Virus record (IMG/VR): IMGVR_UViG_3300045988_178965
Span: 123,649 to 187,648 of that record
Length of the DNA stretch: 64,000 bases
Direction: 5' to 3' (one strand)
Source: a virus
Positions 14,203 through 30,471 of this stretch are shown piece by piece (position 1 is the stretch's first letter; each line of letters starts with the position of its first letter). The notes beneath the pieces are model-generated. The model did no database searches, had not been told where the DNA came from, and saw only the letters and a program-made list of their open reading frames with translations. A program made the translations under genes and the position numbers.

Positions 14203-14239
14203 CTTTATACCTTTCTAGGGTTAATTACTTACATCCATG

Positions 14240-14269
14240 AAAAGACCGACACTCAATCGAGTGCCGGTC
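14240..14269 (-). terminator. GTGTCGGT/U-tract hairpin element, copy 1
   Basis: Plus strand AAAAGACCGACACTC-aatc-GAGTGCCGGTC. 11-bp stem with one A.C (plus sense) that is G.U in the minus sense. It sits between the stop at 14273 and the RNAP-A start at 14202. Confidence 0.6.
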
Positions 14270-14272
14270 AGC

Positions 14273-14392
14273 TTATTTTTCCTTCATTTTATCGATCCGA
14301 TTTTGAATGGATTTCATTACCCATTTCAAACGGCCCGTAAGAAACTTTATCTTTGCGTAGCTATAGCTTCTTCTTCCTCTATTTGAACGCAT
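14273..14392 (-). CDS. possible small basic protein (39 aa)
   Basis: Not in the track (<60 aa). ATG 14392 lies 1 nt after the Bfd-like stop (TAAAATG). Translation MRSNRGRRSYSYAKIKFLTGRLKWVMKSIQNRIDKMKEK. The stop is followed directly by hairpin copy 1. Confidence 0.3.
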   Translation of the reverse strand: MRSNRGRRSYSYAKIKFLTGRLKWVMKSIQNRIDKMKEK

Positions 14393-14393
14393 T

Positions 14394-14573
14394 TTATTTC
14401 CCTTCCTTTGCTGCTTCTTTGTGCTTTGAAATCAATGAGCAAACCATTTCGTGACAACAGCCACAACAAGTAGTCGCGCCGGTCTCTTTTTGTATTGTTT
14501 CAAGTTCTGCACCATTAACAGCCATAGCGGTAATAGTTTTATCATTAATATTATTGCAAATACAAATAACCAT
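14394..14573 (-). CDS. Bfd-like [2Fe-2S] mini-ferredoxin (59 aa)
   Basis: Not in the track (59 aa). Translation MVICICNNINDKTITAMAVNGAELETIQKETGATTCCGCCHEMVCSLISKHKEAAKEGK. CxCNxIxDKxI ... GxxxCGxC matches E. coli Bfd (MYVCLCNGISDKKI...GNQCGKC). RBS AAGGAAAGG. Confidence 0.75.
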   Translation of the reverse strand: MVICICNNINDKTITAMAVNGAELETIQKETGATTCCGCCHEMVCSLISKHKEAAKEGK

Positions 14574-14601
14574 AAATAACCTTTCCTTAATTAATTATTA
14601 A

Positions 14602-14638
14602 CAAAAGAATTGGCCCCGACACCTTTCGATGCGGGGCC
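14602..14638 (-). terminator. GTGTCGG hairpin element, copy 2
   Basis: ggccccg(acac) (14612-) / cggggcc (-14638). A-tract CAAAAGAA at 14602-14609. Lies upstream of the Bfd-like start. A T-tract on both sides makes it potentially bidirectional. Confidence 0.5.
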
Positions 14639-14728
14639 TTTTCTATCACTAATAAAGGAGTATTAGGGTGCCGTCTTTCCGTCGTCCCTGCGATTGCAAA
14701 CCGTCGCCTACAAGCTGTCAAGAAAGGT

Positions 14729-14737
14729 ATTATAGCA
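14729..14737 (-). promoter_or_regulatory. possible extended -10 promoter element (TGCTATAAT, minus sense)
   Basis: Plus-strand attatagca is minus-sense TGnTATAAT. No good -35. It lies inside the ORF-free GC-rich island. Confidence 0.25.
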
Positions 14738-15070
14738 GGATTTTTCGGAGTCATGGATGATCCTGAACCATGTGCATAAAACTTTATACACTTAATAATG
14801 GGGGGCCCCGATCCAAATACCTTATTGCCGAAAGGAGGTCAATAAGAAATATGGTATTCGGTCTGCGGGGCGGGGAAAGGCTACAGGCGATACTGATATA
14901 TCCGACAGTATATAAAAATAGTCTGATTTATCGCCTGCCACTTTGGGCATATCGAGTAGTCAACACGAACAGAGCCACTGTTATTTAACGACTTACGATT
15001 AATGCGCCAAGTATTGTTCCTCCGGTCACTCCGACCAGAACACACTTGCCACACAAACTTGTTTTATTAA

Positions 15071-15454
15071 TCAGAAGGCATTTTCGCCATTCAAGAATAC
15101 GCCGGTAATTTTAAATTCGCGTTTGCCAAATTCTTCGTCTTCGATTTCGATTGTGCCAACATCATAAATTGTATCAGATTCAGCAAGGCGGCGAATATGC
15201 GAAGGAAGTTCAGCAATACGTTTACCTTCTTTTGTCAGAAGAATATTACAACCCAAATCTTTCAAGTCTTCGTCATCCATATTGGCAATAGACTTGATAT
15301 CTTCGGAGGTTAAGACCATGCGGTCAACTTGGGCACATTCCAATTCTGCAAATTCACGGAATTCTTTATCAGTTGGGGCTGAAAATGTCAGTTCCTGTGC
15401 AATGGCCAAACCAAGTTTAGCATATGCTTTATACAATACATTAGGTGATTTCAT
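15071..15454 (-). CDS. hypothetical acidic protein
   Basis: ATG 15454 preceded by AAAGG. 127 aa, no motif recognised. Confidence 0.65.
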   Translation of the reverse strand: MKSPNVLYKAYAKLGLAIAQELTFSAPTDKEFREFAELECAQVDRMVLTSEDIKSIANMDDEDLKDLGCNILLTKEGKRIAELPSHIRRLAESDTIYDVGTIEIEDEEFGKREFKITGVFLNGENAF

Positions 15455-15471
15455 TGTTTAACCTTTAAAAT

Positions 15472-15936
15472 TTATTTTGATTTAGATTTCAGTTTATAAA
15501 ACACATGCTTACCAATACGGTGCGGTTTAACAGCTCGTGGCGCTGGTCGTTTTCCATTAGAGGAAAAGAAAATAGCTCCCCGGGTATTGTCAGCATGATG
15601 TTTCGCCTTATGAGCTAAATAAACTTCTTGTGCAATTTTTTCAGTCTCTTTATCGTAGCCGGTTTTGGAACGTAGCTTTTTATTACGATACCATTGAAAC
15701 TGTCCACGTTGGGCAATAACACCATTTACCGTATTCGGAAATTCTTTGTGTTTTACACGATTCATGATTACGTGAGCAACTGCTTTCTTTCCTGCTATGG
15801 ATTCGCCGCGAGCTTCGTTATGAATAGCAGTCGCTAAAGCTTTTACTTCGGAAGAAGCTGACTTCTGTTTATTCTCGGCTTTTACATTAAAACTTGCAGC
15901 CAGTAAAATAGCTACAATAAGAAATCGTTTATTCAT
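15472..15936 (-). CDS. secreted SleB-type cell-wall hydrolase (Hydrolase_2 family)
   Basis: AIHNEARGESIAGKKAVAHVIMNRVKHKEFPNTVNGVIAQRGQFQW is the SleB/CwlJ-family signature. The start is reassigned to ATG 15936 (GGAGAG RBS), giving signal peptide MNKRFLIVAILLAASFNVKA. Confidence 0.75.
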   Translation of the reverse strand: MNKRFLIVAILLAASFNVKAENKQKSASSEVKALATAIHNEARGESIAGKKAVAHVIMNRVKHKEFPNTVNGVIAQRGQFQWYRNKKLRSKTGYDKETEKIAQEVYLAHKAKHHADNTRGAIFFSSNGKRPAPRAVKPHRIGKHVFYKLKSKSK

Positions 15937-16117
15937 CTTTGGGCTCTCCATATACAACAATATAGCTCCCACCTGAATGCTGCTCAAGAGCTACAGTCAC
16001 ATTGTTAAACTCATTCTTGATGTTATTTATAACAGTGATAAGTTCATCTGCACTGTAATAAACATCTTCGGAAAGAAACTGTTCAAGGAGACCAATTTCT
16101 TTTGATTTATTAGGCAT
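15929..16117 (-). CDS. hypothetical protein
   Basis: ATG 16117 preceded by GAGG. An 8-nt overlap with the next gene suggests translational coupling. Confidence 0.55.
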   Translation of the reverse strand: MPNKSKEIGLLEQFLSEDVYYSADELITVINNIKNEFNNVTVALEQHSGGSYIVVYGEPKDE

Positions 16118-16258
16118 AATAAGCCGCCTCTTATTGTTTGTAGATTTAAATCCCTACAAGATTATTTTAATTTTCTATTTAACGGAAGGCAAAAAGTGCT
16201 AATAATTTCCGTACTGATAATACAATTAAAAATAGCATAATTGCCTCCGTTATATTAG

Positions 16259-16657
16259 TTACGAACCTTCTGCAATATCAATAATTGCAGATATTTCTTT
16301 CATGATGCGGACATAATACTTAAGCCGTCCAAGAAAGCGTTTTGTAGCTTCACAATCAGGATAGATATTAGTAATAATATCGCTAACACTGTACAAACGA
16401 ATATGATGTTCATATGCTTGATAATAATAATCAAGCAAAATCTTTTCATTGATTCTCGTGTTTTCTTCAATATCACCTTTATGGCCGCAGATAATGCTAG
16501 GACGAATCAAGTCTTTAACCTTGATATCTTCCTTAATGCCAACTGCGCGTCTATTTAACATTCTGATTTTATTGAATTTCATATCTCTGAGAAGCTCTTC
16601 AAATGAATGAATATGCTTAAAGAACTTCTCATTGAATGCACGATTTACAGACTTCAT
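16259..16657 (-). CDS. hypothetical protein
   Basis: The ATG at 16657 overlaps the upstream stop (TAATG). Confidence 0.6.
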   Translation of the reverse strand: MKSVNRAFNEKFFKHIHSFEELLRDMKFNKIRMLNRRAVGIKEDIKVKDLIRPSIICGHKGDIEENTRINEKILLDYYYQAYEHHIRLYSVSDIITNIYPDCEATKRFLGRLKYYVRIMKEISAIIDIAEGS

Positions 16658-17004
16658 TACTCTGATGCCTTTAAATCAGGCAATTGTTCCAAAGCTGTAA
16701 CCGCTTTTACAGCTTTCGCTTCTTTTGGTTTGGAAGCTTCAATTGCCTTATTCATGTGCTGAAACTGCATATCTTCATAGGCAGATTTTGTAATTGCACG
16801 GCACAAAACCTTTGGCTCTTTGCCAGGAACGAGGTCGTTTACACATTCTTCATAAACGGCGCCACCTTTAGAATAGCTGAGCTGAATCCAATGGTCCGTA
16901 TTCAAATAGATGCGTGATGGATCATCGATTTTGTTGCAGGCCGAGAGGCTAGAAATAGCAATAGCGGCTGCCAATACAGCGGATACTTTTTTATTTACTT
17001 GCAT
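16657..17004 (-). CDS. lipoprotein
   Basis: Signal peptide plus lipobox: AAIAISSLSAC. ATG 17004 preceded by GGAG. Confidence 0.7.
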   Translation of the reverse strand: MQVNKKVSAVLAAAIAISSLSACNKIDDPSRIYLNTDHWIQLSYSKGGAVYEECVNDLVPGKEPKVLCRAITKSAYEDMQFQHMNKAIEASKPKEAKAVKAVTALEQLPDLKASE

Positions 17005-17016
17005 AATTTACTCCAT

Positions 17017-17520
17017 TTAAAGTTGATTACGGTAATATTCTCTGACTTCCATCAGAGCCTTACCAAGAAGATTGCGGCCACGCCAATTTCGACGGTCAAG
17101 GATTTCATTACTCATCCAATCCAATTTGACGCCCCAAATTGCATCATACGGCGAACCTTCAACCAATTCGAGGTTATTGGTCCGTAAAAGGATTTCTTTC
17201 AGTGTAGGATTTTGGAATTTGATTTTCAGAATATCAACCATAACTCCATAACGCTTTTCGTCCCATACCTTAGGATCGAAATTTTGTACCGCCCGGCCTA
17301 CCCTTTTGACTTCTGACGCTGATCTAGCCTGAACAATGAGTCTAATTTTGCTCTCATCGCCAAATGTAATAGCTTTCTCAATCATAAACGCCTGCTCAGC
17401 AGTCTTTACATTGTAGCCTTTATACACAAGTGGGCTAAAGTAAAAATTACTAAACGGTGCACCGCCGGTAAAGAACGTTACCATTTTATCAGTATAACGC
17501 ATATTGTTTTTAAGTTGCAC
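17017..17520 (-). CDS. NADAR (YbiA/DUF1768) family protein
   Basis: FFTGGAPFSNFYFSP, TAEQAFMIEKA and SPYDAIWGV match NADAR landmarks. The start is ambiguous: TTG 17532, GTG 17520 after GGAG, or ATG 17499. Confidence 0.75.
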   Translation of the reverse strand: MQLKNNMRYTDKMVTFFTGGAPFSNFYFSPLVYKGYNVKTAEQAFMIEKAITFGDESKIRLIVQARSASEVKRVGRAVQNFDPKVWDEKRYGVMVDILKIKFQNPTLKEILLRTNNLELVEGSPYDAIWGVKLDWMSNEILDRRNWRGRNLLGKALMEVREYYRNQL

Positions 17521-17555
17521 AATTTGCTCCAATGTTTATTAATGAACGGCAAAGA

Positions 17556-17777
17556 CTATTGTTTCTTGTGCTTTCCTGTGATTAATAATCCTACTGCAGC
17601 AATACTGAAGATAGGGAACAATACTGGCCACATTAAACATCCTAGGAAAGCAAACAGTATAACCATAAACTTTTCAAAGGGTTCACTTCCAGATAAATCA
17701 ATGTCTTTGACTCGTATCACAAAACATAGAGCCAAAAAGATTACGCAGCCAATTAAAATGATAAACAATGGGTCCAT
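17556..17777 (-). CDS. small membrane protein
   Basis: ATG preceded by AGGAG. Two hydrophobic helices. Confidence 0.6.
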   Translation of the reverse strand: MDPLFIILIGCVIFLALCFVIRVKDIDLSGSEPFEKFMVILFAFLGCLMWPVLFPIFSIAAVGLLITGKHKKQ

Positions 17778-17805
17778 TTTGATCTCCTAAAAATTTAATA
17801 TTCAT

Positions 17806-17827
17806 TTTACCGACAATTTGCCGACAC
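17806..17827 (-). repeat. GTGTCGG element, copy 3 (two direct half-sites, no hairpin)
   Basis: Plus strand TTTTACCGACAATTTGCCGACAC, immediately after the stop at 17828. CCGACA occurs twice in direct orientation, with no complementary arm. Confidence 0.5.
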
Positions 17828-18076
17828 TTAATCTCTTATGATTTTCTTAATTCCAAATACCAGTGGCTTAAATAAGCCATATGAAATGATCACAGTAAGT
17901 AATACCGGCCAAGCTACAGAAGCCAACATAGACAACCAGATATATTTTTCGATCAGGTCTTCAACATCTTCGCAGCCTTCTTTATTCGCTAATCCATTTT
18001 TATAGGAAACAATAAGTATCCCAATGAAAACAACAAATAAAATAGCTACGATCAGCAGATATATTTTTAAAGCCAT
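17828..18076 (-). CDS. small membrane protein
   Basis: ATG 18076 preceded by AAGG. Two TM-like segments. Confidence 0.6.
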   Translation of the reverse strand: MALKIYLLIVAILFVVFIGILIVSYKNGLANKEGCEDVEDLIEKYIWLSMLASVAWPVLLTVIISYGLFKPLVFGIKKIIRD

Positions 18077-18278
18077 TTTATGTACCTTATTTTAATCTCC
18101 GTTAATAATGAATGCCTGCGTTTATACTCCGCAGGCAAGAGTCAGACACATTCACAGGAGCAGGTCGTCATCCCAAGTCAGGAATAGCATTTCAGCTACT
18201 AGCCTTTGTGACTAAATCATCGGCTCCATTCAACATCTAGTGTTGAATCATACTAGGAAGGAGCTTTTATTACTCCAT

Positions 18279-18309
18279 AAATAAACCGACACCAATATAA
18301 TGGCGTCGG
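18279..18309 (-). terminator. GTGTCGGT/U-tract hairpin element, copy 4
   Basis: ccgacacc (18286-18293) / ggcgtcgg (18302-18309). The one A.C in the plus sense is G.U in the minus sense. It follows the stop at 18324. The minus-sense tail is TTTATTTAT. Confidence 0.6.
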
Positions 18310-18323
18310 CTATATTTAAGGTT

Positions 18324-18602
18324 TTAGTAAAGTGAGAATTTTTCGATCAAATAGACCACAAACTTTCCAGTATGGATCGTTGCAATATGGCCTAAAATGA
18401 CGGAAATAACAAACAATAGTACATTAAACGGCCCATTGTTTCTCAATTTGGAAAAAGCTTTGATGTTGAAAACGCTTTTATGCAAATTCGAAAGAATGAA
18501 ACCGATATATACAGCCAGGAAAATAACATACAGTATGCCTGTGGGGTTATTCACTACGGCATTGTAAATGAAATAATCCCATATATTTGTAAAAACAAAC
18601 AT
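18324..18602 (-). CDS. small membrane protein
   Basis: ATG 18602 preceded by AAGGA. Hydrophobic throughout. Confidence 0.6.
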   Translation of the reverse strand: MFVFTNIWDYFIYNAVVNNPTGILYVIFLAVYIGFILSNLHKSVFNIKAFSKLRNNGPFNVLLFVISVILGHIATIHTGKFVVYLIEKFSLY

Positions 18603-18623
18603 GATAAATCCTTATTAGTTGTC

Positions 18624-18788
18624 TTATGACCTAATTTTAGCAATTAAATCGTTGACTAAACAGAAAACAATAACCGGCAAATTCAGAATAAAGGCAATAA
18701 GAACATAAAAAATAGTACACACGATAATTACTAAAAATACCGGTATAAACGCCAATAATTGAGCAAAGCCAAGCAGGAAGTTCATCAT
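18624..18788 (-). CDS. small membrane protein (54 aa)
   Basis: The track start at 18824 is TTG, inside the upstream gene. ATG 18788 follows GAAGGAA and lies after the upstream stop (18794). Confidence 0.55.
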   Translation of the reverse strand: MMNFLLGFAQLLAFIPVFLVIIVCTIFYVLIAFILNLPVIVFCLVNDLIAKIRS

Positions 18789-18793
18789 AGGGG

Positions 18794-19252
18794 CTATTCC
18801 TTCACAATAATACCATTTCGGCAAATATTTATTTCTACGCCTTCTACAATTTTAGGTGTATAAATGCCTACATACAGTCGACCTTGGAAGTTTCGTACCC
18901 AAGATACAATATATTTCGTTTTAGGAGACATAAACGTATACCGAATATAAGGATCACCATTATTATCCGACACTCTATCAATATGCAACGGGACTTTAAA
19001 ATTCTGCTCAAGATCAGATAAGAACCAATTCAGATTGCCATAAAGAGTTTTGGCATCATAGTTCTTAGAAGCATATTCCATAATAGAATCAAAAATAGGG
19101 TTGCCGCGGAGAGATTTGATATAATCCGCATTGGACAATTCATCAATAAAATTCTCAATAGCGGAAATATATTCTTTACCTACACCAGAGCTCCAGTCAA
19201 TAGGCTTAGAATTAGGGTCGAACATGGTAGAAAACAAGTTTAAAGGAATCAT
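18794..19252 (-). CDS. hypothetical protein
   Basis: ATG 19252 preceded by GGAGG. 152 aa, soluble. Confidence 0.65.
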   Translation of the reverse strand: MIPLNLFSTMFDPNSKPIDWSSGVGKEYISAIENFIDELSNADYIKSLRGNPIFDSIMEYASKNYDAKTLYGNLNWFLSDLEQNFKVPLHIDRVSDNNGDPYIRYTFMSPKTKYIVSWVRNFQGRLYVGIYTPKIVEGVEINICRNGIIVKE

Positions 19253-19304
19253 TTAAAGCCTCCATAGGGCCTTATATAAAGACCCTATAACTTATTATTT
19301 GTAA

Positions 19305-19580
19305 TTACTGCAAATGAACTTCTTCGCCATCACATTCTACACACTCTTCGTCATTACTACCAAACGAAGAGAATAATGATGTAACAGCAGGTGTAATAAT
19401 CCAGATACAGCCAATAAATATTGCAAGTCCAGTAACTAAGGATGCAAATGTAGAGTTGTAGATAAAGCAAATTAAGGAAATACCTAATACTGCGCAAACC
19501 TTAAATATTGAAAGGCGCCCCTGTTGATTGTAGAACAGACGCGCCGCAATAAGATTGAAACGAGATTTCAAAAAGCCCAT
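19305..19580 (-). CDS. small membrane protein with C-terminal CxxC
   Basis: ATG preceded by GGAG. Two TM-like segments, then DEECVECDGEEVHLQ. Confidence 0.6.
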   Translation of the reverse strand: MGFLKSRFNLIAARLFYNQQGRLSIFKVCAVLGISLICFIYNSTFASLVTGLAIFIGCIWIITPAVTSLFSSFGSNDEECVECDGEEVHLQ

Positions 19581-19718
19581 AATATAGCTCCAAATGTAAT
19601 AACTGTAATCAATTTTAGCTATTTAAATACAAATAACAATAGCAAAAAATGATATAAATATAAATGCCCGCGTAATAAGCCTTTAAATAATAGCACTTTA
19701 CAACGGGCCTTTTAATTA

Positions 19719-20060
19719 TTAGATATATTCGTATTTAGAATACAATTTCTTGAACATATCACCAATCGGCCATTGAGCAGGATGATAGACCCATTTCTTA
19801 TTTTCATACTTTTTATAGCCAATCAGTTTCTTCATAATGAACAAAGAACAGCCGAAAATAAGGCCGGTAGCAGCACCAATCACAAAACCAGACATTGTTC
19901 CCGAAACGCCACAAGCAAGGCCAATTAACAAGGAAAAACAAAGGTCTACGTAAGCTTCATAGCCTAAAACCTTATACAAAAGCTCCACATTAGTCTTGGC
20001 CAAGATAGACAATATAGCCAAAGAAGTAATAGCGGAGCCAAACAATATCATAGAAATCAT
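19719..20060 (-). CDS. membrane protein
   Basis: The track start at 20102 is a TTG that reads through repeat copy 5. ATG 20060 is preceded by GGAG. Glycine-rich TM segments. Confidence 0.6.
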   Translation of the reverse strand: MISMILFGSAITSLAILSILAKTNVELLYKVLGYEAYVDLCFSLLIGLACGVSGTMSGFVIGAATGLIFGCSLFIMKKLIGYKKYENKKWVYHPAQWPIGDMFKKLYSKYEYI

Positions 20061-20087
20061 GATAACTCCATATATAATATTTACCAC

Positions 20088-20109
20088 AAAAAACCGACAC
20101 AATATCGAT
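20088..20109 (-). terminator. GTGTCGGT/U-tract element, copy 5 (weak 5-bp hairpin)
   Basis: Plus strand TTACCACAAAAAAACCGACACaatatcgat. The extended match TTACCACAAAANAACCGACAC is shared with copy 6. Confidence 0.5.
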
Positions 20110-20151
20110 TTTATAAATATTCAAAAACTAGTAGCGTAAGAGCTAAAAGAA

Positions 20152-20165
20152 GGGCCCGCCGGCCC
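20152..20165. terminator. GC-rich hairpin with T-tracts on both sides
   Basis: gggcc-cgcc-ggccc. Minus sense is followed by TTCTTTT, plus sense by TTTACCTTTTATT. Confidence 0.45.
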
Positions 20166-20174
20166 CTTTACCTT

Positions 20175-20360
20175 TTATTGGCGTAAAAACCAAAAATAAA
20201 AAACTTCAAAAACAAAGATAGATGCAAAAATTAAACATCCATAAAAGCAAATACAAGCATAAAAAATACAACAACCAAAAAATAAACAACAAACCAAAAC
20301 AAAATAGAATAAACCATAATAAACAAATACACTCCCAAATATAAAATAGAACTTATACAT
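20175..20360 (-). CDS. doubtful F/Y/C-rich hydrophobic ORF
   Basis: The ORF lies in an A/C-rich, G-poor tract that continues beyond it, so the open frame may be purely compositional. A hairpin follows it. Confidence 0.25.
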   Translation of the reverse strand: MYKFYFIFGSVFVYYGLFYFVLVCCLFFGCCIFYACICFYGCLIFASIFVFEVFYFWFLRQ

Positions 20361-20856
20361 CTACATAATACAAAATAGAATCATGTACAAGTATAAATAC
20401 TAATACATCTGTACTTCAATACAATACAGATAAACTTAAATACGAACTGCATTACAATGTACTCTAATATAGACTACATTATATGAGTACGGTCTACATT
20501 ATTGTACAAGCAGAGACTAAATTATACTGAACTCTTCAATACGGACTGCATTACCTATATTGGCTAAATATACATCTTAATACCTATTTATAGGTCTGTG
20601 CACCTACAGGTACATTTTGACACCTGTATAGCCTACAAATAGACTCTGTGCACCTGGTAGTCCAGTCCATTAAAACCCTTGCAAATACTAGCCTTACGGC
20701 TATTGGTTGCATTCTTATTATTCTTAGTATACTTATATCTCTTATGTATTGTATTAGTATTATTTATGCTTTTAATCAATACAAGGACGCGCCCGTCCTG
20801 CCTATATTAACCGTCTATTGACGTCTATATTGACTGCTTATTAGCACTTTTACCAC

Positions 20857-20885
20857 AAAATAACCGACACTTTTCAGACGTCGGT
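20857..20885 (-). terminator. GTGTCGGT/U-tract hairpin element, copy 6
   Basis: Plus strand TACCACAAAATAACCGACacttttcagacGTCGGT. Lies in the ORF-free region. Confidence 0.55.
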
Positions 20886-21166
20886 ATCCGCTAAAGGAGA
20901 AAATGATACTTTAGGAATTATTCTCATTTAGGCCTGTTTTCTGCCTAAAACAGTCCATTTTTGCTGATATACACTGTATTTCTGCAAGAATTTAGCCATT
21001 TTACTACTGATTTTACTATATCATTTATTTCTGAACGAAAAACCTGTATCTATATAAATCAACAACTTAGATAACTTCGCTCCCTTAGCCATATAAAACA
21101 AAATTAATCACTCATTTATTCTTGAACGATATCAACAATTCAACCATTCAAAAGAATAAAATCATA

Positions 21167-21182
21167 AGAAAGGTACCGACAC
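21167..21182 (-). repeat. GTGTCGGT element, copy 7 (weak or no hairpin)
   Basis: Plus strand AGAAAGGTACCGACAC, in the ORF-free region downstream of the SSB-like gene. Confidence 0.4.
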
Positions 21183-21298
21183 AACACGTCAACCAGTCAA
21201 AAAAGACAAAAATACTGGTGCACAAATACATGCACACCAGCATTCAATGGACTATAGATTGATAGGGGCTCGCTTACGCTCGCCCGTATCAGACTCTA

Positions 21299-22687
21299 TT
21301 AGAACGGACCGTCTTCGTCGTCTGCTTGAGGTTTGGTTTCAGTAGGTTGGGCTTGACCACGACGTGGACGTTTGGTTTCTTTGGTTTGAGCAGGTTTCTC
21401 GCCTTCTACTTTAGCAGTATCAGAAAAGATATCTACATCACCCAAGTCCAGACCGTCAACGTTCAGAGCGTCCAAATCAACGTCTGCGGCAACAGTAGTA
21501 GAGCCGGTTTCATTACGGTTGATGATATAACCGTCCATAGTAACGCGTGCTGTAACTACCCATGGTTGACCAGTTTCGTCGTCTTCACGTGGGGTGCGGC
21601 TTTCGAAACCGAGGACGTTATTCTCGGTGAACATGATTTCATCGGCATTGCTGCTTACGAAATCGAATGCTTCGGCGCGAGTTTGTCCACGGCCATTGTT
21701 GCCATTGCTGTACATAACTGCACGTACAGTAACGTCATTACCACGGCTGTCTTTGAAGTTAACGAACTTACGGCAATATTGAGTCGGATTGGTACCTTCT
21801 GTTACTTGAACACCAGCCAGATAGCCATCATGCAATTCGTCTTGCTCCAGGTTTGTCATTTCAGCTTGACCAGTAATAGTCAGACAGAAGTTAGGGGCAA
21901 TACGGCCATATGCACGTGGGGTAGTGCGGACATCAATTTGTTTGCCGTTGCTGGTGGTTTTGTAACTTGCTGCTGCAATCGGTACAATGCAAGGGCTCAG
22001 GCCATTTGCACCAACGTAGATTACAGTAGAAGTCGCAATTGCACCTGCGTCAACCAAGCGTTTGATTTCGGCTTTGTAACCTGCAACGATTTTGGCCATC
22101 ATTTCAGACAGCTGTTGTTCGTTATAGGTTGCGCGTTCACCGTTCTTTTCATAGGCGGTAACGATGCCTTTATCGTGGCTGACGAACGCAGAGCCGGACA
22201 GCAATGCTTCATAACCTTTGGTCAGGCTCAAAGCCTTCAACGCCAGGCCATTTGCCTTCTCATACCATTCGGAACCAAATGCTGGACCTACAGGAACAGG
22301 GAAGTTTGCCAATTTGCCATTTTGAATGCTCAAACCATTGAAGCCTGCATCCAGGAATTCCATAGCATTTGCATTGCTATTACGGACAGACGCAACGATT
22401 TGGTTAGTAGTCATACCTTCAACGTATTGCACACCGTCGTCGGCATTAGTAGCAACCCAGCAGGCACGGCCATTACTACGGCTCATTGGGGTATTTGCAA
22501 TCATGTGCACCAGTTTGTACACGGAAATGCGGTAACCCAGGGCTTCATTCTCGTCTTGGCGAGCGTCCAATACATAGAATGTACGGCGAGATGCTGCCAT
22601 TGGTGTTGCAACCTGACCGCTAACGCTGTGGAATTTGTTACGGCCAGTGTTCAGGGCGCCAGTGTCGATTTGATTCAGTTCGTTCAT
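21299..22687 (-). CDS. abundant DNA-metabolism protein, SSB-like (disordered linker + acidic ...DDEDGPF tip)
   Basis: The tail ...KRPRRGQAQPTETKPQADDEDGPF resembles SSB tips (E. coli ...DDDIPF; T7 gp2.5 acidic tail ending in F). Strong codon bias and visibly higher G+C leave the antisense frame open (21326..22711), as in the capsid genes. The ~400-aa globular part is unrecognised. Confidence 0.4.
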   Translation of the reverse strand: MNELNQIDTGALNTGRNKFHSVSGQVATPMAASRRTFYVLDARQDENEALGYRISVYKLVHMIANTPMSRSNGRACWVATNADDGVQYVEGMTTNQIVASVRNSNANAMEFLDAGFNGLSIQNGKLANFPVPVGPAFGSEWYEKANGLALKALSLTKGYEALLSGSAFVSHDKGIVTAYEKNGERATYNEQQLSEMMAKIVAGYKAEIKRLVDAGAIATSTVIYVGANGLSPCIVPIAAASYKTTSNGKQIDVRTTPRAYGRIAPNFCLTITGQAEMTNLEQDELHDGYLAGVQVTEGTNPTQYCRKFVNFKDSRGNDVTVRAVMYSNGNNGRGQTRAEAFDFVSSNADEIMFTENNVLGFESRTPREDDETGQPWVVTARVTMDGYIINRNETGSTTVAADVDLDALNVDGLDLGDVDIFSDTAKVEGEKPAQTKETKRPRRGQAQPTETKPQADDEDGPF

Positions 22688-22787
22688 GATGATTTTTCCT
22701 TTTTAGGTTGATTGAAATAAAAGATTCTTTCGGTCAAGATTCAGACCATAGAGCTGTTTTGGATTGAGGTCAGCTCTGTTACCTCAT

Positions 22788-22820
22788 AAAAATACCGACA
22801 CGACAATTTCTGCCGCGCCG
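22788..22820 (-). terminator. GTGTCGGT/U-tract hairpin element, copy 8
   Basis: cgacacgaca (22796-22805) / tgccgcgccg (22811-22820). 10 bp with three A.C in the plus sense, all G.U in the minus sense. Lies between the 22829 stop and the 22687 start. Confidence 0.6.
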
Positions 22821-22828
22821 ATATCTTA

Positions 22829-23137
22829 TTATCTCACCTTAATATTTCGCAAATAGGAATCTGCAAAGTTTAGTGAGCGTTCAATGTAAGCTACACTAGG
22901 ATTATTTAGCGCAGTTACATTATTCAGGCTATCAGACAATATCAAGGCACCTGGATTAGACTGTTTAGCGAAAAGAATTGCTTCCAGTTCTGCCGTATTG
23001 TTATCTGATGCAAGAATAGTTTTATGACCATTTACTGCCATATTCAGTGAGCAGTAACCAATTTTCCATCGATTGCCGCCCACTAAACGAGCGTCGCAGT
23101 AAATCTTATCAGGCTGCGGCCGCATTTGCTTCCTCAA
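22829..23137 (-). CDS. small RNase H-like protein
   Basis: IYCDARL (Asp), NNTAELEAILFA (compare RNase HI TNNRMEL) and LILSDSLN (Asp). Only ~100 aa, so the assignment is tentative. Confidence 0.45.
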   Translation of the reverse strand: MRKQMRPQPDKIYCDARLVGGNRWKIGYCSLNMAVNGHKTILASDNNTAELEAILFAKQSNPGALILSDSLNNVTALNNPSVAYIERSLNFADSYLRNIKVR

Positions 23138-24086
23138 TATGTTCTTTCATTGCACGCATAATTACACCTTCTTTAGACTTGCGTCCAAAGTCTTTGGTAG
23201 TTGCTGCGTCCAAGATAGACAGCATTTTACCTAAGGTATAACCGGCAATATCACGAACTGTGCCAAGAATCTTAATTACACCGCCATAGACGTACATAAC
23301 CAAACCTTTGGCCAAGTCCAATACGAACGAGCCGCCAGTTTTACAGCCAACCCAAATCTTATGGGTCCAGCCTTCTTTGTCTTCATCGTCAGTGTTCTTG
23401 ACAATATCAGACAGCAGTTTGCTGAATTTTGCGGATGTTTCTTCGTCAACACCCTCCAATCCTTCATAGAATTGGTTTGCCGCTTCATTCAACACGGCCT
23501 TTTCGGCGGTCAGTGTAGAAACACCAGTTGCGTCAGTAGTACGGTTGTATTTAACCAACGCAGTGAGGTATTCTCCCACATTCTTCAACAGCTCTGGGGT
23601 CACTTCGTCACCCTCAAATGCTAACATTTCGGACTTAATGTCCTCCACGGCGACATTGAACTTGTCGATGTTAGCGAATTTGGCTTCTGCACCGGCGATA
23701 ATTTGGGCGATTGTTTGGGTTTGGGTATTTTGAGTCATGATTTCATTTCCTTTAGCTAAAGTTTCAGATTGGGTTTCAGTTTTCACTTCGGTTTTGGACA
23801 ATTCTTCTGCCCGTTTGAATACAGACAGAGTAACAGGCCCAATTTGCTCCGGATTTTTGAGCTCGGTTCCAGAGATGGTGACCGTAACACCATTATTCTC
23901 AACAAAGCCTTTATGTGTGGCTTCACCTAAGACCGACATCCATAGAACAGCGGTCTCTGTAATTTTCTTTTCAACGGCATTTTTATGAACGCCGGTAAGT
24001 TTTTGATATTGAAGCTCCAATTTATGAAGCTCACCTTGCAATTGAAGCAGGACTTTCTTTGCCTGCTTTTGGTTTTTGATTTCCAT
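23109..24086 (-). CDS. hypothetical protein with N-terminal coiled coil
   Basis: The track start at 24155 is a TTG reading through hairpin copy 9. ATG 24086 is preceded by GGAG. The protein starts MEIKNQKQAKKVLLQLQGELHKLELQ. Confidence 0.6.
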   Translation of the reverse strand: MEIKNQKQAKKVLLQLQGELHKLELQYQKLTGVHKNAVEKKITETAVLWMSVLGEATHKGFVENNGVTVTISGTELKNPEQIGPVTLSVFKRAEELSKTEVKTETQSETLAKGNEIMTQNTQTQTIAQIIAGAEAKFANIDKFNVAVEDIKSEMLAFEGDEVTPELLKNVGEYLTALVKYNRTTDATGVSTLTAEKAVLNEAANQFYEGLEGVDEETSAKFSKLLSDIVKNTDDEDKEGWTHKIWVGCKTGGSFVLDLAKGLVMYVYGGVIKILGTVRDIAGYTLGKMLSILDAATTKDFGRKSKEGVIMRAMKEHIEEANAAAA

Positions 24087-24119
24087 TTCGGACTCCAATA
24101 AAGCAACATGCCTTTCCAC

Positions 24120-24152
24120 AAAAGAACCGACACCAAAACTAATCGGTGCCGG
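24120..24152 (-). terminator. GTGTCGGT/U-tract hairpin element, copy 9
   Basis: Plus strand CCACAAAAGAACCGACACC-aaaactaatc-GGTGCCGG. One A.C in the plus sense is G.U in the minus sense. Confidence 0.6.
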
Positions 24153-24162
24153 CAACTTTTAT

Positions 24163-24459
24163 TCAGATGAGCTCAAAGTAAGGGTCATAAGTAGTACCCT
24201 TATGGACATATTTTCCATCCTCGAGCTCATATACTGTAACGTTCTGCCCCATAGGAAGAGAAGTGTCACAAACATAGATTTTAGTAAAACCCAAAGAGCT
24301 CAAACTTTCGTCCATCTTTTTGTCAGACGAATGTTCGAACATGTCGATCCACTCTGCTTCTAATTTGCCGACGCTGGATTTCAATACGACAGTTTTGCCG
24401 TATGCCCAGTGGCGGATTTGTTTCAGAAAACGGTTGATAGAAGGGTTCTTTTTAGCCAT
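24163..24459 (-). CDS. hypothetical protein
   Basis: ATG 24459 is preceded by GGAGAT. The alternative ATG 24471 lacks an RBS. Confidence 0.6.
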   Translation of the reverse strand: MAKKNPSINRFLKQIRHWAYGKTVVLKSSVGKLEAEWIDMFEHSSDKKMDESLSSLGFTKIYVCDTSLPMGQNVTVYELEDGKYVHKGTTYDPYFELI

Positions 24460-24496
24460 GATTATCTCCATAAAAGGCTGTTAAAATGTTTACCGC

Positions 24497-24525
24497 AAAA
24501 GAACCGACACTAATTATATCGGTTC
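24497..24525 (-). terminator. GTGTCGGT/U-tract hairpin element, copy 10
   Basis: Plus strand TACCGCAAAAGAACCGAcactaattataTCGGTTC (7-bp stem). Confidence 0.6.
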
Positions 24526-24573
24526 AGATACTAGGGTTTAAACCAAGTTACTATTGGCCTTAATTAAAAAACA

Positions 24574-24603
24574 AAATGACCGACACCTCCTCAGATGCCG
24601 GCC
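24574..24603 (-). terminator. GTGTCGGT/U-tract hairpin element, copy 11
   Basis: gaccgaca (24578-) / tgccggcc (-24603). 8 bp with two G.U in the minus sense. It follows the stop at 24612. Confidence 0.6.
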
Positions 24604-24611
24604 ACTACAAA

Positions 24612-24977
24612 TTATTCAATACCAATCAGGTCTTTTGCGAGCTCATTCAGCTCTTTGTCAGATTCATTCATACGAACCATGAATAGACGTAAAGCTGGTG
24701 CAACTGTCAATACAAAGTTCATGATTGTATTGAACTTAGAGGTCCAAACGCGGATTGCTTTGCACGCCCAATCTTTGTTAATTTCGATTGAGACTTCAGC
24801 GCTACCATCTTCATTACCGGATTTCTCCCAATACAGGGTATCCTTGTTGATTTTGGTAGGATTTTTGCCGCTAATGCCTACCATGCTGTTGAATTCGCCC
24901 TCACGAGCAAAATACTCTGCGCCGGCTTCTTGCAAGGCTTTAACTTCTTTCTTAGCAAATTCGATTTTGATTTTCAT
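24612..24977 (-). CDS. hypothetical protein
   Basis: 121-aa ORF. The antisense 24595..24996 ORF is rejected. Confidence 0.6.
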   Translation of the reverse strand: MKIKIEFAKKEVKALQEAGAEYFAREGEFNSMVGISGKNPTKINKDTLYWEKSGNEDGSAEVSIEINKDWACKAIRVWTSKFNTIMNFVLTVAPALRLFMVRMNESDKELNELAKDLIGIE

Positions 24978-25015
24978 ACAATTTCCTTTATATTAGTGAT
25001 TGGGGTTATTCCCAT

Positions 25016-25042
25016 AAAAAGACCGACACAAAAATATCGGCC
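25016..25042 (-). terminator. GTGTCGGT/U-tract hairpin element, copy 12
   Basis: Plus strand AAAAAGACCGAcacaaaaataTCGGCC. One G.U in the minus sense. Confidence 0.6.
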
Positions 25043-25049
25043 CCTTAGG

Positions 25050-25364
25050 TTACAAAATTTCTACCTCAACATCATGAGCTAGAAACGGCATATTCTGTTT
25101 GGCAATCAAGATTGGATTTTGGCCTTCTGTCACATAAATCACATCAGACTCTGTTCGGCCATCAATTAATTCATATGTCACATAATATTGCCAGTCTTGA
25201 CCAATATGGAATGTTGCAACAACTTCACCATTAGAATAGGCCTTTACCATTGCGGCCTCATCCTCTGAGAACTCTATCTCTTTCTTGATCGCATCGATGT
25301 CGAGGCTGGAAACTTCATATTCCTCGTTAAAGAGATTACTTCCAAATACCTTAATGCTATACAT
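25050..25364 (-). CDS. hypothetical protein
   Basis: 104-aa ORF bounded by repeat copies 12 and 13. Confidence 0.6.
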   Translation of the reverse strand: MYSIKVFGSNLFNEEYEVSSLDIDAIKKEIEFSEDEAAMVKAYSNGEVVATFHIGQDWQYYVTYELIDGRTESDVIYVTEGQNPILIAKQNMPFLAHDVEVEIL

Positions 25365-25393
25365 TTTGGATTACTCCATTTATTTATATCGTT

Positions 25394-25406
25394 AAAATAC
25401 CGACAC
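25394..25406 (-). repeat. GTGTCGGT element, copy 13 (no clear hairpin)
   Basis: Plus strand AAAATACCGACAC, ~30 nt upstream of the 25364 start. Confidence 0.45.
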
Positions 25407-25604
25407 AAAAACCGTTGATGTTATGCAACCTATATTCAATACGGAGTTTATAAATGTCCTAGCGTATTTATATGCGTGGTTGCAACATGTTGATACCCTG
25501 TTACCTGTCCAGCGGGTGAAAAAAGGTGGGCCGCCACTGTATTGTAAAAACAACAAAGTAGGGCCCAAAGTTTTTATGGAGGTAAAAAGGATTCAAATGT
25601 TTCC

Positions 25605-25647
25605 AAAAAGAAACCGATACCAAGTGCAACAACGCTCAAGGTATCGG
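25605..25647 (-). terminator. variant hairpin element, copy 14 (CCGATACC)
   Basis: AAAAAGAAA-ccgatacc (25614-25621) / ggtatcgg (25640-25647). Perfect 8-bp stem with an 18-nt loop. Confidence 0.5.
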
Positions 25648-25677
25648 CAAAACTTACAGGGAAATCATATATGTCAT

Positions 25678-25708
25678 AAAATAACCGACATCCTTTTACA
25701 GATGCCGG
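25678..25708 (-). terminator. variant hairpin element, copy 15 (CCGACATC)
   Basis: ccgacatc (25685-25692) / gatgccgg (25701-25708). One G.U in the minus sense. It follows the stop at 25721. Confidence 0.55.
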
Positions 25709-25720
25709 CCATTGTACTGT

Positions 25721-25924
25721 TCAGATAAACGAAAACTCTTCGAATCTAGAAAACCTCAAAGAATTATCATCTTGAATCTCAAAGATTACCATATCATCAT
25801 CTTCTGAATGACTTACAATTACATCCAAGAAGTGCTTCCATATGGAAACCTCTTTATTGTTTCCTAAATCGGCCCTAAGTTCGTCAATAGAGCCGTAGGC
25901 CAATTTAAATTCGAAAGATACCAT
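25721..25924 (-). CDS. hypothetical small protein
   Basis: Start reassigned to ATG 25924 (GGAGG RBS). It shares one nucleotide with the upstream stop (TGATG). Confidence 0.55.
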   Translation of the reverse strand: MVSFEFKLAYGSIDELRADLGNNKEVSIWKHFLDVIVSHSEDDDMVIFEIQDDNSLRFSRFEEFSFI

Positions 25925-26103
25925 CAAACCTCCAGCCCTTTGACTTCGATATCGACGGCACCAACATCTTCCATACATGTGGAGATGCAAACTTGCTCAT
26001 ATACATCATCCCAGTCCATAGGGACTTCATACGAACGAAGGAAATCCTTACGGCTGCCATCTTCCATTGTAAATGTAACCAAAAAATCTGTATATTTTTT
26101 CAT
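25924..26103 (-). CDS. hypothetical small protein
   Basis: Start reassigned to ATG 26103 (GGAGG RBS). The track start at 26148 reads through hairpin copy 16. Confidence 0.55.
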   Translation of the reverse strand: MKKYTDFLVTFTMEDGSRKDFLRSYEVPMDWDDVYEQVCISTCMEDVGAVDIEVKGLEV

Positions 26104-26133
26104 GATGAAACCTCCATTAAAATTATTATCAGT

Positions 26134-26161
26134 AAAAGACCGACACATTCACGCATCGGTC
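26134..26161 (-). terminator. GTGTCGGT/U-tract hairpin element, copy 16
   Basis: Plus strand AAAAGACCGAcacattcacgcaTCGGTC. It follows the stop at 26172. Confidence 0.6.
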
Positions 26162-26171
26162 CGAAATTCTA

Positions 26172-26468
26172 TCAGAACGGGTGATCTTCACTCGCGTTCT
26201 CTTTATGAAACTTCTCTGCATATTGAGAAGCCCACTTATTAGGATTCATGCAACCTTTACCTGGGGTTGCAAACTCATGAACGGCGGAGCAGTAAACTGC
26301 CATACCATCCTGAGTCGGAATCCTACGGAACCAGCCGGGGATGTCCTTTTCAGGCATCTCAACGCCGACTGGCATAATGAAACTTGCGCCACGATACGCA
26401 GCGCTTGCAACATCGCCGGCACAAAGTTGTGCAAACGGTGAATCTGGGGTAATGACGAATTGTCGCAT
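26172..26468 (-). CDS. hypothetical protein ending in ...SEDHPF
   Basis: ATG 26468 preceded by GGAGGG. The C-terminal acidic-Pro-Phe tip is similar to that of the SSB-like protein. Confidence 0.6.
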   Translation of the reverse strand: MRQFVITPDSPFAQLCAGDVASAAYRGASFIMPVGVEMPEKDIPGWFRRIPTQDGMAVYCSAVHEFATPGKGCMNPNKWASQYAEKFHKENASEDHPF

Positions 26469-26482
26469 ACCCTACCCTCCGA

Positions 26483-26515
26483 GAAAGAAAAGAAAACGGT
26501 AGGACGAATCCTACC
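26483..26515 (-). terminator. canonical intrinsic terminator (UUCG tetraloop) after the RNAP-B gene
   Basis: Minus sense GGTAGGA-TTCG-TCCTACC (26498-26515), followed by GTTTTCTTTTCTTTC. Confidence 0.7.
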
Positions 26516-26522
26516 ACCGTTG

Positions 26523-26534
26523 AAAGACCGACAC
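26523..26534 (-). repeat. GTGTCGGT element, copy 17 (no hairpin arm)
   Basis: Plus strand GAAAGACCGACAC, just upstream (minus sense) of the UUCG terminator. Confidence 0.45.
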
Positions 26535-26624
26535 CAGAACCGCTCTACGTGAATACAGCCCCATATCGCTACGGAGCCGTATCCAGCGAGCAGTAACCTT
26601 TGCCAGTTTTTATTGGGTACGGAG

Positions 26625-30038: not shown

Positions 30039-30069
30039 AATGATTTCCTTTTTAAAGATAGCCGTATAT

Positions 30070-30106: not shown

Positions 30107-30121
30107 AGGCTAGTTTATTTT

Positions 30122-30469: not shown

Positions 30470-30471
30470 GC

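Follow-up and report, generated by a model that had tools for sequence, protein, structure and literature searches.

A repeated GTGTCGG element between two polymerase-like genes of a large uncultured phage as a candidate fused terminator and promoter

A short composite element recurs through one gene block of a large uncultured tailed phage of ~180 kb, which was analysed here over a stretch of 64,000 nucleotides (IMG/VR record IMGVR_UViG_3300045988_178965, positions 123,649 to 187,648; hereafter the window). In gene sense, which is the minus strand, its consensus reads CCGRYRY-loop-GTGTCGGT-NN-TTTT-R-TG-R-n-AAA, and the block of elements (14.2-26.5 kb) sits between the genes of two polymerase-like proteins, RNAP1 and RNAP2. 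The element family is real, non-random and biologically meaningful, and it joins a hairpin and a linear motif that are under separate selection. In the reading that we favour, and to which we give an even chance, each element would be a composite cassette of two overlapping signals, namely a hairpin that terminates the transcript of the preceding gene and a DNA promoter for a two-barrel RNA polymerase (RNAP) encoded by the phage, with a start near position G17.

The sequence GTGTCGGT occurs 13 times in the window, always on the minus strand and always within 14245-26534, where chance would give 0.44 occurrences, and none of 100 shuffled sequences reached this number. Likewise, GTGTCGGTNNTTTT with at most one mismatch gives 13 matches, all of them on the minus strand. 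A position weight matrix, trained on relatives only and with the window excluded, returned 15 window matches of at least 16 bits (here called strong copies), which all fall within 14252-26534 of the minus strand, against a best score of ~15 bits in shuffled sequence; no match of at least 12 bits was found in the window on the plus strand or outside the block. With the element numbered in gene sense from G1, the first G of the hairpin 3′ arm, the strong copies have their G1 at 26534, 26146, 25691, 25620, 25406, 25029, 24586, 24510, 24133, 22801, 21182, 20870, 20100, 18292, and 14252. An initial annotation, made from the letters of the window, had listed about 17 copies restricted to one strand of the leftward block. 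An element is indeed present at each of those coordinates, 15 of them strong and two degenerate (17806, GTGTCGGCAAATTGTCGGTAAAATG; 14602, GTGTCGGGGCCAATTCTTTTGTT), and the restriction applies to all 15 strong copies. Moreover, a scan of the window shows the motif above chance frequency and on a single strand, and in whole relatives of ~180 kb the strict pattern is found in this block only. On the other hand, the “looser relatives” that it had placed at 5343 and 30070 are ordinary terminator-like hairpins scoring below 8 bits, and the plus-strand GTGTCGG near 56450, which it had considered a chance match, lies at 56452 inside coding sequence and below threshold.

The block belongs to a series of leftward genes that runs from ~31 kb to position 1 and includes rIIA, rIIB, an AAA ATPase and a YadA-like adhesin, and the rightward genes from 31.6 kb include terminase, portal and major capsid protein. 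No close sequenced relative was found among 50,697 phage records, either by megablast of the block or by tblastn of the largest protein (RNAP1). Distant matches among sequenced phages were obtained only for the capsid protein and RNAP2, in Acinetobacter phage ME3 and Bacillus phage 0305phi8-36, jumbo phages to whose counterparts the capsid protein is distantly related. The relatives in IMG/VR and other assemblies are contigs of ~172-188 kb. Over 113 copies from the window and these relatives, the motif consists of G1 T2 G3 T4 C5 G6 G7, followed by T8 (93%), two free positions (N9, N10), T11-T14 (88-91%), R15, T16 (81%), G17 (87%), and R18, and then becomes A-rich. Across clades, the 3′ arm was invariant in ~95 unique copies from 10 genomes.

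A stable sense-strand stem-loop of -4 to -18 kcal/mol is formed by 12-13 of the 17 window copies, in agreement with the ~13 originally proposed, and none is formed at 26534, 25406, 21182 and 17827, as had also been claimed. Since the variable loop length caused MAFFT to misalign the 5′ arms, pair statistics were computed by anchoring the arms instead, with 83 unique copies used for arm pairing and the 66 hairpin-bearing unique copies used for wobble counts, both drawn from the window and relatives. The 7-nt arm is fully paired in 57% of copies, compared to 6% of shuffled controls, and stems often reach 11-12 bp, with loops of widely varying length and no conserved sequence. Opposite U4 the 5′ arm carries G in 41 copies and A in 25, and opposite U2 it carries G in 30 and A in 31. 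U faces G3, G1, G7 and G6 in 9 to 19 of the 66 copies. C5 is the one arm position at which a transition would disrupt sense-strand pairing, and it faces G in 58 copies and A in just 4. Read on the other strand, these wobbles become A.C mismatches, at ~1.8 per stem, and the earlier statement that the mismatches are G.U in minus sense, so that the hairpin acts in minus-sense nucleic acid, is thereby upheld statistically. Its companion, that the 5′ arm varies in sequence but stays complementary, is correct as to pairing, whereas the 7-bp core varies almost solely by transitions that preserve wobble. Two-sided changes do occur among orthologues in the stem extensions (e.g., A-U to C-G in copies orthologous to 22801), and the pair at position 7 changes by clade, being C-G (56) or U.G (14) in the clade of the window, U.G in L192, and U-A (12 of 13) in two clades with GTGTCGA. 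Because of this wobble asymmetry, the two-sided stem changes and the clade-wise change at position 7, we conclude that the hairpin is selected in the sense strand and is integral to function.

The linear motif is selected independently of the hairpin. About 20% of the 83 unique copies, and 23 of 95 in the wider set, have no 5′ arm better than chance, and in L192 half of the copies are hairpin-less, yet retain motif, T tract and TGA. Such hairpin-less copies are conserved at orthologous sites, so the stem is not the necessity that it would be in an intrinsic terminator. Three hairpin-less copies (G1 at 21182, 20100 and 25406) have shortly upstream a terminator hairpin of their own that is unrelated in sequence (21245-21210, 20167-20150 and 25535-25519, respectively), and ordinary terminators free of the motif are found after the capsid gene (53312-53350), after the RNAP2 gene and, with the first two just named, within the block. 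Therefore termination in this phage does not need GTGTCGG. The suggestion of the initial annotation that the element is no ordinary terminator and is recognised by sequence is borne out by the invariant 3′ arm, the conserved hairpin-less copies, conservation past the T tract, and the coexistence of motif-free terminators. Moreover, the motif would be paired in the transcripts of some copies and unpaired in those of others, which fits recognition as DNA better than recognition as RNA. Several copies pass a terminator scan, with a U-rich tract directly 3′ of the stem, and no family of Rfam 15 matches the elements at the gathering threshold in the whole window, or at E≤1 in 14000-31600. Two other kinds of signal were considered and rejected. 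A hairpin promoter of N4 type would have a short stem with a 3-nt loop in the template strand, whereas the loops here vary and the wobble places pairing in the non-template strand, and an operator for a dimeric DNA-binding protein is at odds with the widely varying arm spacing and with wobble changes that would be mismatches in DNA of the other strand.

Both parts of the element keep their own distance to genes. Within the window, G1 clusters 40-52 nt ahead of the next start (9 of 17 copies) and 21-32 nt past the previous stop (7 of 17 copies); gaps of ~70 nt hold a single element that satisfies both spacings, and larger gaps hold one post-stop element and another before the start. The original estimate that most copies stand 20-45 nt before the next start thus describes these nine, and the other eight lie at 66-822 nt. 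Among 91 distinct copies, 70% of those with a full hairpin are stop-proximal (20-33 nt), compared to 6 of 19 hairpin-less ones, and the start-proximal cluster, with G1 at 40-56 nt from the start, is common to all copy classes. From 26.5 to 20 kb, all genes that start clear of the preceding gene have an element at 40-114 nt upstream. In copies orthologous to 20100, the motif and the leader up to the start are kept and the upstream sequence is replaced. It follows from these spacings, and from the conserved leader with its replaced upstream sequence, that the hairpin belongs to the gene before it and the motif to the gene after it. The same region, which is variable, consists of small orphan genes, and most of its proteins have no Pfam match. 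Here the elements mark recombination breakpoints between relatives; for example, L059 at 14674 and L060 at 13564 have common downstream and unrelated upstream sequence with the junction at the motif. Some gaps contain tandem copies.

Several features are suggestive, although not proof, of an RNA 5′ end near G17. T16/G17 is a pyrimidine-purine step followed by purine-rich bases, and multisubunit RNAPs prefer a pyrimidine at -1 and a purine at +1. Among 81 distinct downstream sequences, 31 have a hairpin of ≤-5 kcal/mol beginning at positions 15-21, with a mean z-score of -0.76 and 31% below -1.5. Two noncoding units (25604-25519 and 18252-18104) are laid out as element, RNA and ordinary terminator. 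The motif as a whole is asymmetric, lies in one orientation and stands at a fixed distance upstream of genes, as is expected of promoters for phage RNAPs.

The initial annotation had also pointed to two phage RNAPs, and both genes were examined. For RNAP2, homologues are found down to 27% identity, with R..SH.GLKGVTK and SD.DGD invariant or nearly so, and its AlphaFold (AF2) model has a predicted local distance difference test score (pLDDT) of 83.6. Foldseek returned 44 matches to this model at E≤1e-3, all of them second-largest RNAP subunits, and also the virion RNAP (vRNAP) of crAss-like phage phi14:2 (6vr4), so that the modelled protein can with confidence be assigned the two-barrel RNA polymerase fold. 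RNAP1 is far more isolated, with only 9 homologues among 1.84 billion representative proteins, across which DxDGD (D838, D840, G841, D842) is invariant. An hhalign comparison of the RNAP1 and RNAP2 families gave 95.3% probability (E 2e-8) over 183 columns of the catalytic region; an earlier comparison with a shallow RNAP1 alignment had given a probability of 0.4%, success coming only after distant homologues were added. The AF2 model of RNAP1 is unusable (pLDDT 39.6). Searches of Pfam, PHROGs and PDB sequences with RNAP1 and RNAP2 gave no match, and direct BLASTP between the two was not significant. The two genes differ in their relation to the elements, the RNAP1 gene having none upstream and the RNAP2 gene having one 50 nt before its start. 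A YonO-like enzyme was noted in 0305phi8-36 by Iyer et al. (PMC7824862), and the promoter sequence of YonO itself was described as still to be determined (PMC5467207).

We infer promoter activity, the start site, the polymerase that reads it, and actual termination from sequence features, which would combine as follows. In the transcript, CCGRYRY-loop-GTGTCGG(T) would fold as a G.U-rich hairpin of 7-12 bp with a U-rich tail, acting as intrinsic terminator or 3′-end stabiliser for the gene just upstream. In DNA, GTGTCGGT-NN-TTTT-R-T-G-R would serve as promoter for a phage two-barrel RNAP, either RNAP1, whose gene heads the block, or RNAP2. Its specificity element would be GTGTCGGT, at approximately -16 to -9, the T-rich stretch would melt, and initiation would take place at the conserved T16/G17 step, giving a purine-rich leader of 24-36 nt that often opens with a stem-loop before the ribosome-binding site. 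Hairpin 3′ arm and U tract would thus reuse promoter bases, and a unit of ~45 nt could end one transcription unit and start the next. Since all related phages repeat the same ~20 bp between many of their small genes, the elements would, as a by-product, offer crossover points for cassette shuffling.

Several observations weigh against the composite cassette. The motif is nearly constant while RNAP1 diverges to 26% and RNAP2 to 46% identity, and since promoter specificity in T7-like phages drifts much faster, such stability might rather be the mark of a conserved host factor. From the compensatory change across the family it is clear that the hairpin is integral to the element, as a pure terminator-type signal would also predict. 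The stop-proximal copies at 24586 and 25691 keep most of the motif without a close downstream gene, and the layout of a conserved 8-mer, 2 nt and a U run may also be likened to sequence-specific terminators. RNAP1, finally, is a putative polymerase only through the 183-column profile match. One rival, which is unlikely but deserves serious attention, takes the element as a sequence-specific terminator or pause signal without promoter, in which the elongating two-barrel RNAP of the phage reads GTGTCGGT and the U run, the hairpin adds intrinsic termination, and leaky stops in series set an expression gradient or delay along the block that ends at RNAP2. This would account for the hairpin and U tract form, for the copies that pass the terminator scan, for the 70% of hairpin copies that begin right after a stop, for a hairpin selected in transcript sense that co-evolves with the conserved arm, and for motif stability during polymerase divergence; the conserved 8-mer, 2 nt and T run also resemble T7 class II signals. 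As a precedent, P23-45, another phage with two-barrel RNAPs, has a conserved 26-nt motif at seven vRNAP terminators (PMC10770324). However, ~15 serial stops, with no other conserved motif in gaps of 68-76 nt, would leave the downstream genes promoterless, and hairpin-less copies keep a fixed distance before starts, often far from stops. Conservation continues past the U tract to T16, G17 and R18, ordinary terminators are used in the same block, and the two noncoding RNA units would have terminators on both sides. A further reading is a coupled stop-restart signal, at which the two-barrel RNAP would release its transcript at the hairpin and U tract and restart at T16/G17 without leaving the DNA, somewhat as at the gene-end/gene-start junctions of non-segmented negative-strand RNA viruses. 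It would explain why terminator and start are fused and co-evolve, why the arm is the recognition sequence, and why the motif is constant despite polymerase divergence; we consider it very unlikely. In a weaker form, the polymerase might recognise the promoter as a hairpin extruded on the non-template strand.

Cleavage of RNA is another explanation, and in our estimate quite unlikely: a phage or host endoribonuclease or RNA-binding protein would read the hairpin and GGU-NN-UUUU-R-UG and cut a polycistronic transcript, so that the upstream piece keeps a protective 3′ hairpin and the downstream piece begins at a fixed distance from its ribosome-binding site. Selection of structure at the RNA level, the fixed distance to start codons with adjacency to stops, hairpins at positions 15-21 as for a new 5′ end, and deep motif conservation, which fits a conserved host enzyme, all agree with this, and T7 offers a known analogue in the RNase III sites between its genes; yet GUGUCGG is paired in some copies and single-stranded in others, and one RNA-recognising protein is unlikely to take both. 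Loop lengths vary widely and loop sequences are unconserved, none of the 20 block proteins scanned against Pfam has a nuclease or RNA-binding domain, and no Rfam family matches. A promoter for the host polymerase, which we hold to be highly improbable, would have T-R-T-G as its “-16 region” or extended -10 with a weak A-rich -10, and GTGTCGGT as a binding site, comparable to the MotA box of T4, for an activator from the phage or for an alternative sigma factor. T14-R15-T16-G17 does match the TRTG of Gram-positive promoters, positions 20-24 are A-rich with TGnTAGAAT or TGnTAAAAT in some copies, and the phage has a perfect TTGACA-17-TATAAT elsewhere (35484-35512). The positions that define a -10 are nevertheless poorly kept (A20 62%, T24 30%), with many copies reading GGAAAG, GAGGGA or GGGAGA, no -35 element stands at the proper distance, and a start ~7 nt past the “-10” would leave leaders of only 9-21 nt. 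Matches of sigma-70 type in the region are at chance level (49 vs. 47.5 expected) and the scanned block proteins include no sigma-like domain, and for most copies a host sigma-70 or extended -10 promoter was rejected for its poor -10, missing -35 and chance-level matches. The least probable of these explanations is a recombination linker or small mobile repeat of the REP/MITE, attC or uptake-sequence kind with no direct role in transcription; it agrees with mosaic junctions exactly at the motif and with the tandem copies, but the elements are strictly intergenic and on one strand of one block, their loops vary, their wobble favours RNA over DNA pairing, they keep a fixed distance to start codons, no gene for a recombinase is apparent, and no enriched genome appears among the bacterial and archaeal matches listed. 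The initial annotation had left promoter or terminator, RNA-processing or stability site, and protein-binding site open, and the comparative data narrow these to a terminator hairpin with a promoter-like motif, without settling the matter.

The composite cassette would have its nearest parallel in the promoter-early stem-loop (PeSL) cassettes of T4-like phages, in which a stem-loop overlaps an early promoter and which mediate gene shuffling (Arbiol et al. 2010, PMC2839356; Comeau et al. 2014, PMC4122927). Both are conserved composites placed among the small orphan genes of a hyperplastic early region. In each, a promoter, here a candidate one, is overlapped or adjoined by a terminator stem-loop and followed by Shine-Dalgarno sequence and start, and crossovers shuffle the cassettes. 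They differ in that PeSLs carry a host sigma-70 consensus, whereas the present motif lacks -35 and -10 and lies between two phage polymerase genes. Furthermore, here the conserved sequence itself forms the hairpin 3′ arm and U tract in a unit of ~45 nt, whereas PeSL stem-loops are not so conserved and are variably placed in the promoter. Thermus phage P23-45 encodes two single-chain two-barrel RNAPs, which use separate repeated promoter motifs (14 AT-rich and 7 GC-rich promoters), and its conserved terminator motif suggests unusual termination (Nat Commun 2024, PMC10770324). The two phages are alike in having two divergent two-barrel RNAPs and one polymerase gene within an early block served by a repeated motif; they differ in that P23-45 has separate promoter and terminator motifs with mapped ends, whereas here one element known from sequence has both aspects. 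Neither RNAP1 nor RNAP2 has a sequence match to any PDB chain, and hence no close relationship to the P23-45 polymerases was found. In analogy, the logic of PeSLs would be applied here to a signal that is not of sigma-70 type, with a transcription scheme that might resemble that of P23-45.

Promoters of T7-like phages are comparable as asymmetric conserved signals of ~18-20 bp in one orientation before many genes. Shared features would be a specificity part on the upstream side, A/T-rich sequence just ahead of the start, transcripts that begin rich in purines, and frequent stem-loops at the head of the leader. T7 class II terminators share the form of a conserved 7-mer and U run. However, no polymerase of the T7 family is encoded here, the candidates being two-barrel RNAPs, the motif sequence is unrelated, and T7 promoters do not lie within terminator hairpins. 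The promoters of the N4 virion RNAP are likewise hairpin-associated conserved sequences used by a phage polymerase at early genes, a use that is putative here. N4 promoter hairpins are formed by the template strand of the DNA, with a stem of 5-7 bp and a loop of 3 nt, whereas the present element has variable loops, ~20% of copies without a hairpin, sense-strand pairing, and ~17 copies rather than 3. With rho-independent terminators it has in common a G+C-containing stem-loop and U-rich tail in the sense strand just after stops; those terminators, in contrast, keep no invariant arm across sites and genomes, no conservation past the U tract and no persistence without a stem.

The motif is unchanged in relatives at 71-74% RNAP1 identity. 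A clade at 46% RNAP2 identity has (A)GTCGRCAC-loop-GTGTCGA-T tract-GATTAAA, and arrays of the same kind lie directly downstream of RNAP1 homologues at 31% and 26% identity (L192, L193, L194), so that next to RNAP1 homologues down to 26% identity only G7 to A changes are seen in the few clades sampled. The most distant RNAP1 homologue (L195, 18% identity) has no such array and has instead a twice-repeated AGTTGAGATATATA. No GTGTCG elements are present in L070 and L071 (27-29% RNAP2 identity), which have ordinary, varied terminators and share the intergenic repeat GGTTGAACCC(C)TTAYG after T-rich sequence; this repeat may be the equivalent signal of their clade. Motif matches on the opposite strand ahead of the RNAP1 gene in relatives turned out to lie in coding sequence or in an HOLDH RNA and were rejected as elements. 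In bacterial and archaeal genomes, one per species, the matches listed include scattered single strict matches, and no genome among them is enriched. The sequence GTGTCGGT resembles the Haemophilus uptake sequence AAGTGCGGT; a DNA uptake sequence or host repeat was ruled out by the confinement to one strand and block together with this genome scan of the matches listed. As a separate observation, CTCCGTA occurs twice between the RNAP1 stop and the first element (26624-26618 and 26576-26570, minus strand), and similar (A/G)CTCCG(T/C) repeats follow the RNAP1 homologue in L193, L194 and L195, including the clade without GTGTCG elements.

Few transcription enzymes are as poorly understood as the single-chain two-barrel RNAPs of phages (e.g., YonO, the crAss-like vRNAP, and the pair from P23-45), and the present family offers a precise and highly repeated candidate signal, GTGTCGGT-NN-TTTT-R-TG-R, together with two candidate enzymes encoded beside it. 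Natural “mutants” are available in the form of copies with and without hairpin and of G7A variants with a compensating arm change, so that two recombinant proteins and a handful of synthetic templates would allow a test of how a two-barrel polymerase finds its start or stop. Early orphan genes are also shuffled at shared regulatory cassettes, as in T4-like phages, in an unrelated lineage of large phages that are uncultured and known from metagenome assemblies only. If the fused design of terminator and promoter is confirmed, it would provide a very compact insulating part for synthetic biology.

Table 1. Copies of the element and the two polymerase-like genes that flank their block. Distances to stops and starts are in gene sense.
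Feature	Position	Strand	Form	Score (bits)	Context and relatives
Element 1	26517..26534	-	GTGTCGGTCTTTCAACGG; motif only, no hairpin	20.7	91 nt past stop of 26625-30038 gene, 66 nt ahead of start at 26468; ordinary hairpin follows (26518-26495); orthologue, also hairpin-less, in relatives having that junction (L059, L060, L061)
Element 2	26129..26160	-	hairpin ACCGATGC/GTGTCGGT + CTTTTACTG, -9.9 kcal/mol	28.4	stop 26 nt upstream, start 43 nt downstream
Element 3	25674..25709	-	variant with ATGTCGGT; strong hairpin, -15.3 kcal/mol	18.5	30 nt past stop codon; kept in 7 genomes
Element 4	25603..25648	-	variant with GTATCGGT; long hairpin, -17.7 kcal/mol	19.6	immediately 5′ of small-RNA candidate
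Element 5	25389..25406	-	motif only, no hairpin	27.3	42 nt before start at 25364; related hairpin-less copies with same upstream sequence caacggttttGTGTCGGT in 6 relatives, including the clade's most distant, L066 and L068
Element 6	25012..25041	-	hairpin, -10.9 kcal/mol, + full consensus GTGTCGGTCTTTTTATGG	34.2	stop 21 nt upstream, start 52 nt downstream
Element 7	24569..24606	-	strong hairpin, -15.1 kcal/mol; RTGG part lost	20.3	stop-proximal
Element 8	24493..24523	-	hairpin, -8.7 kcal/mol	26.9	51 nt before start
Element 9	24116..24153	-	11-bp hairpin, -18.0 kcal/mol, + full consensus	29.3	stop 30 nt upstream, start 47 nt downstream
Element 10	22784..22822	-	12-bp hairpin, three G.U pairs, -16.2 kcal/mol	30.1	
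Element 11	21165..21182	-	motif only, weakened T tract	20.3	separate ordinary terminator upstream (21245-21210)
Element 12	20853..20885	-	hairpin, -12.1 kcal/mol, + full consensus	29.5	within 938-nt noncoding stretch
Element 13	20083..20109	-	weak A/U-rich hairpin, -4.0 kcal/mol	21.3	40 nt before start at 20060; no hairpin in L059, L060, L061; separate ordinary terminator upstream (20167-20150)
Element 14	18275..18311	-	strong hairpin, -17.7 kcal/mol	26.4	stop-proximal; ~40 nt upstream of conserved 150-nt noncoding RNA
Element 15	17803..17827	-	degenerate GTGTCGGCAAATTGTCGGTAAAATG; no T tract, no hairpin	10.7 (chance range)	
Element 16	14598..14635	-	degenerate (14622); hairpin, -10.6 kcal/mol, ending GTGTCGGGG; T tract displaced		overlaps end of doubtful 55-aa open reading frame
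Element 17	14235..14269	-	11-bp hairpin, -16.5 kcal/mol, + GTGTCGGTCTTTTCATGG	21.1	50 nt before RNAP2 gene start
RNAP1 gene	26625..30038	-	1137 aa, very divergent, two-barrel RNAP-like		immediately upstream of block; no element of its own
RNAP2 gene	10762..14202	-	1146 aa, predicted single-chain two-barrel RNAP		last gene served by element

Of the two noncoding units in the block, the shorter is a small-RNA candidate of ~85 nt (25604-25519, minus strand), which consists of a 5′ stem-loop, an invariant single-stranded UUUUACCUCCAU and an ordinary covarying terminator hairpin. Its UUUUACCUCCAU is complementary to Shine-Dalgarno sequences, and the candidate is kept down to 71% RNAP1 identity. The longer is a structured RNA of ~150 nt (18252-18104, minus strand). 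Between clades with a protein identity of only ~46%, its sequence identity exceeds 85%. Four stems are predicted, with three to four pairs that covary, and an ordinary terminator (TGCCTGCG...CGCAGGCA) closes the RNA; it matches no Rfam family and follows an element in each clade. A noncoding A/T-rich stretch of ~1 kb (20170-21180, minus strand) contains two elements and short imperfect direct repeats, such as CTTMAATACGRACTGCATTAC, present twice at a distance of 99 nt; it may be a replication origin or contain further noncoding RNAs.

Outside the block, a full-length HOLDH RNA (RF02997; 374.6 bits, E 3.6e-101) lies at 35520-35884 on the plus strand, with the perfect TTGACA-17-TATAAT promoter directly upstream of it. 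Relatives have this RNA too, and a literature search on “HOLDH” returned irrelevant papers only. The divergent intergenic region between the leftward and rightward blocks (31000-31580) is free of open reading frames and rich in G/T repeats, e.g., GGTGTGTGAA and GTGTGAAGATGTGAGTG. The helicase-like gene at 36596-37936 (plus strand) has homologues in relatives L067, L068 and L192 that carry Hint/intein domains, and the gene beside these homologues has a TnsA-like endonuclease N-terminal domain. Among the leftward genes, the open reading frame of 597 aa at 6071-7864 (minus strand) has YadA head, stalk and membrane-anchor domains and is thus a trimeric autotransporter adhesin, which is unusual in a phage. 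An adhesin of YadA type is also found in the distant relative L069 beside a BamE-like gene, a neighbour that hints at a host with an outer membrane.

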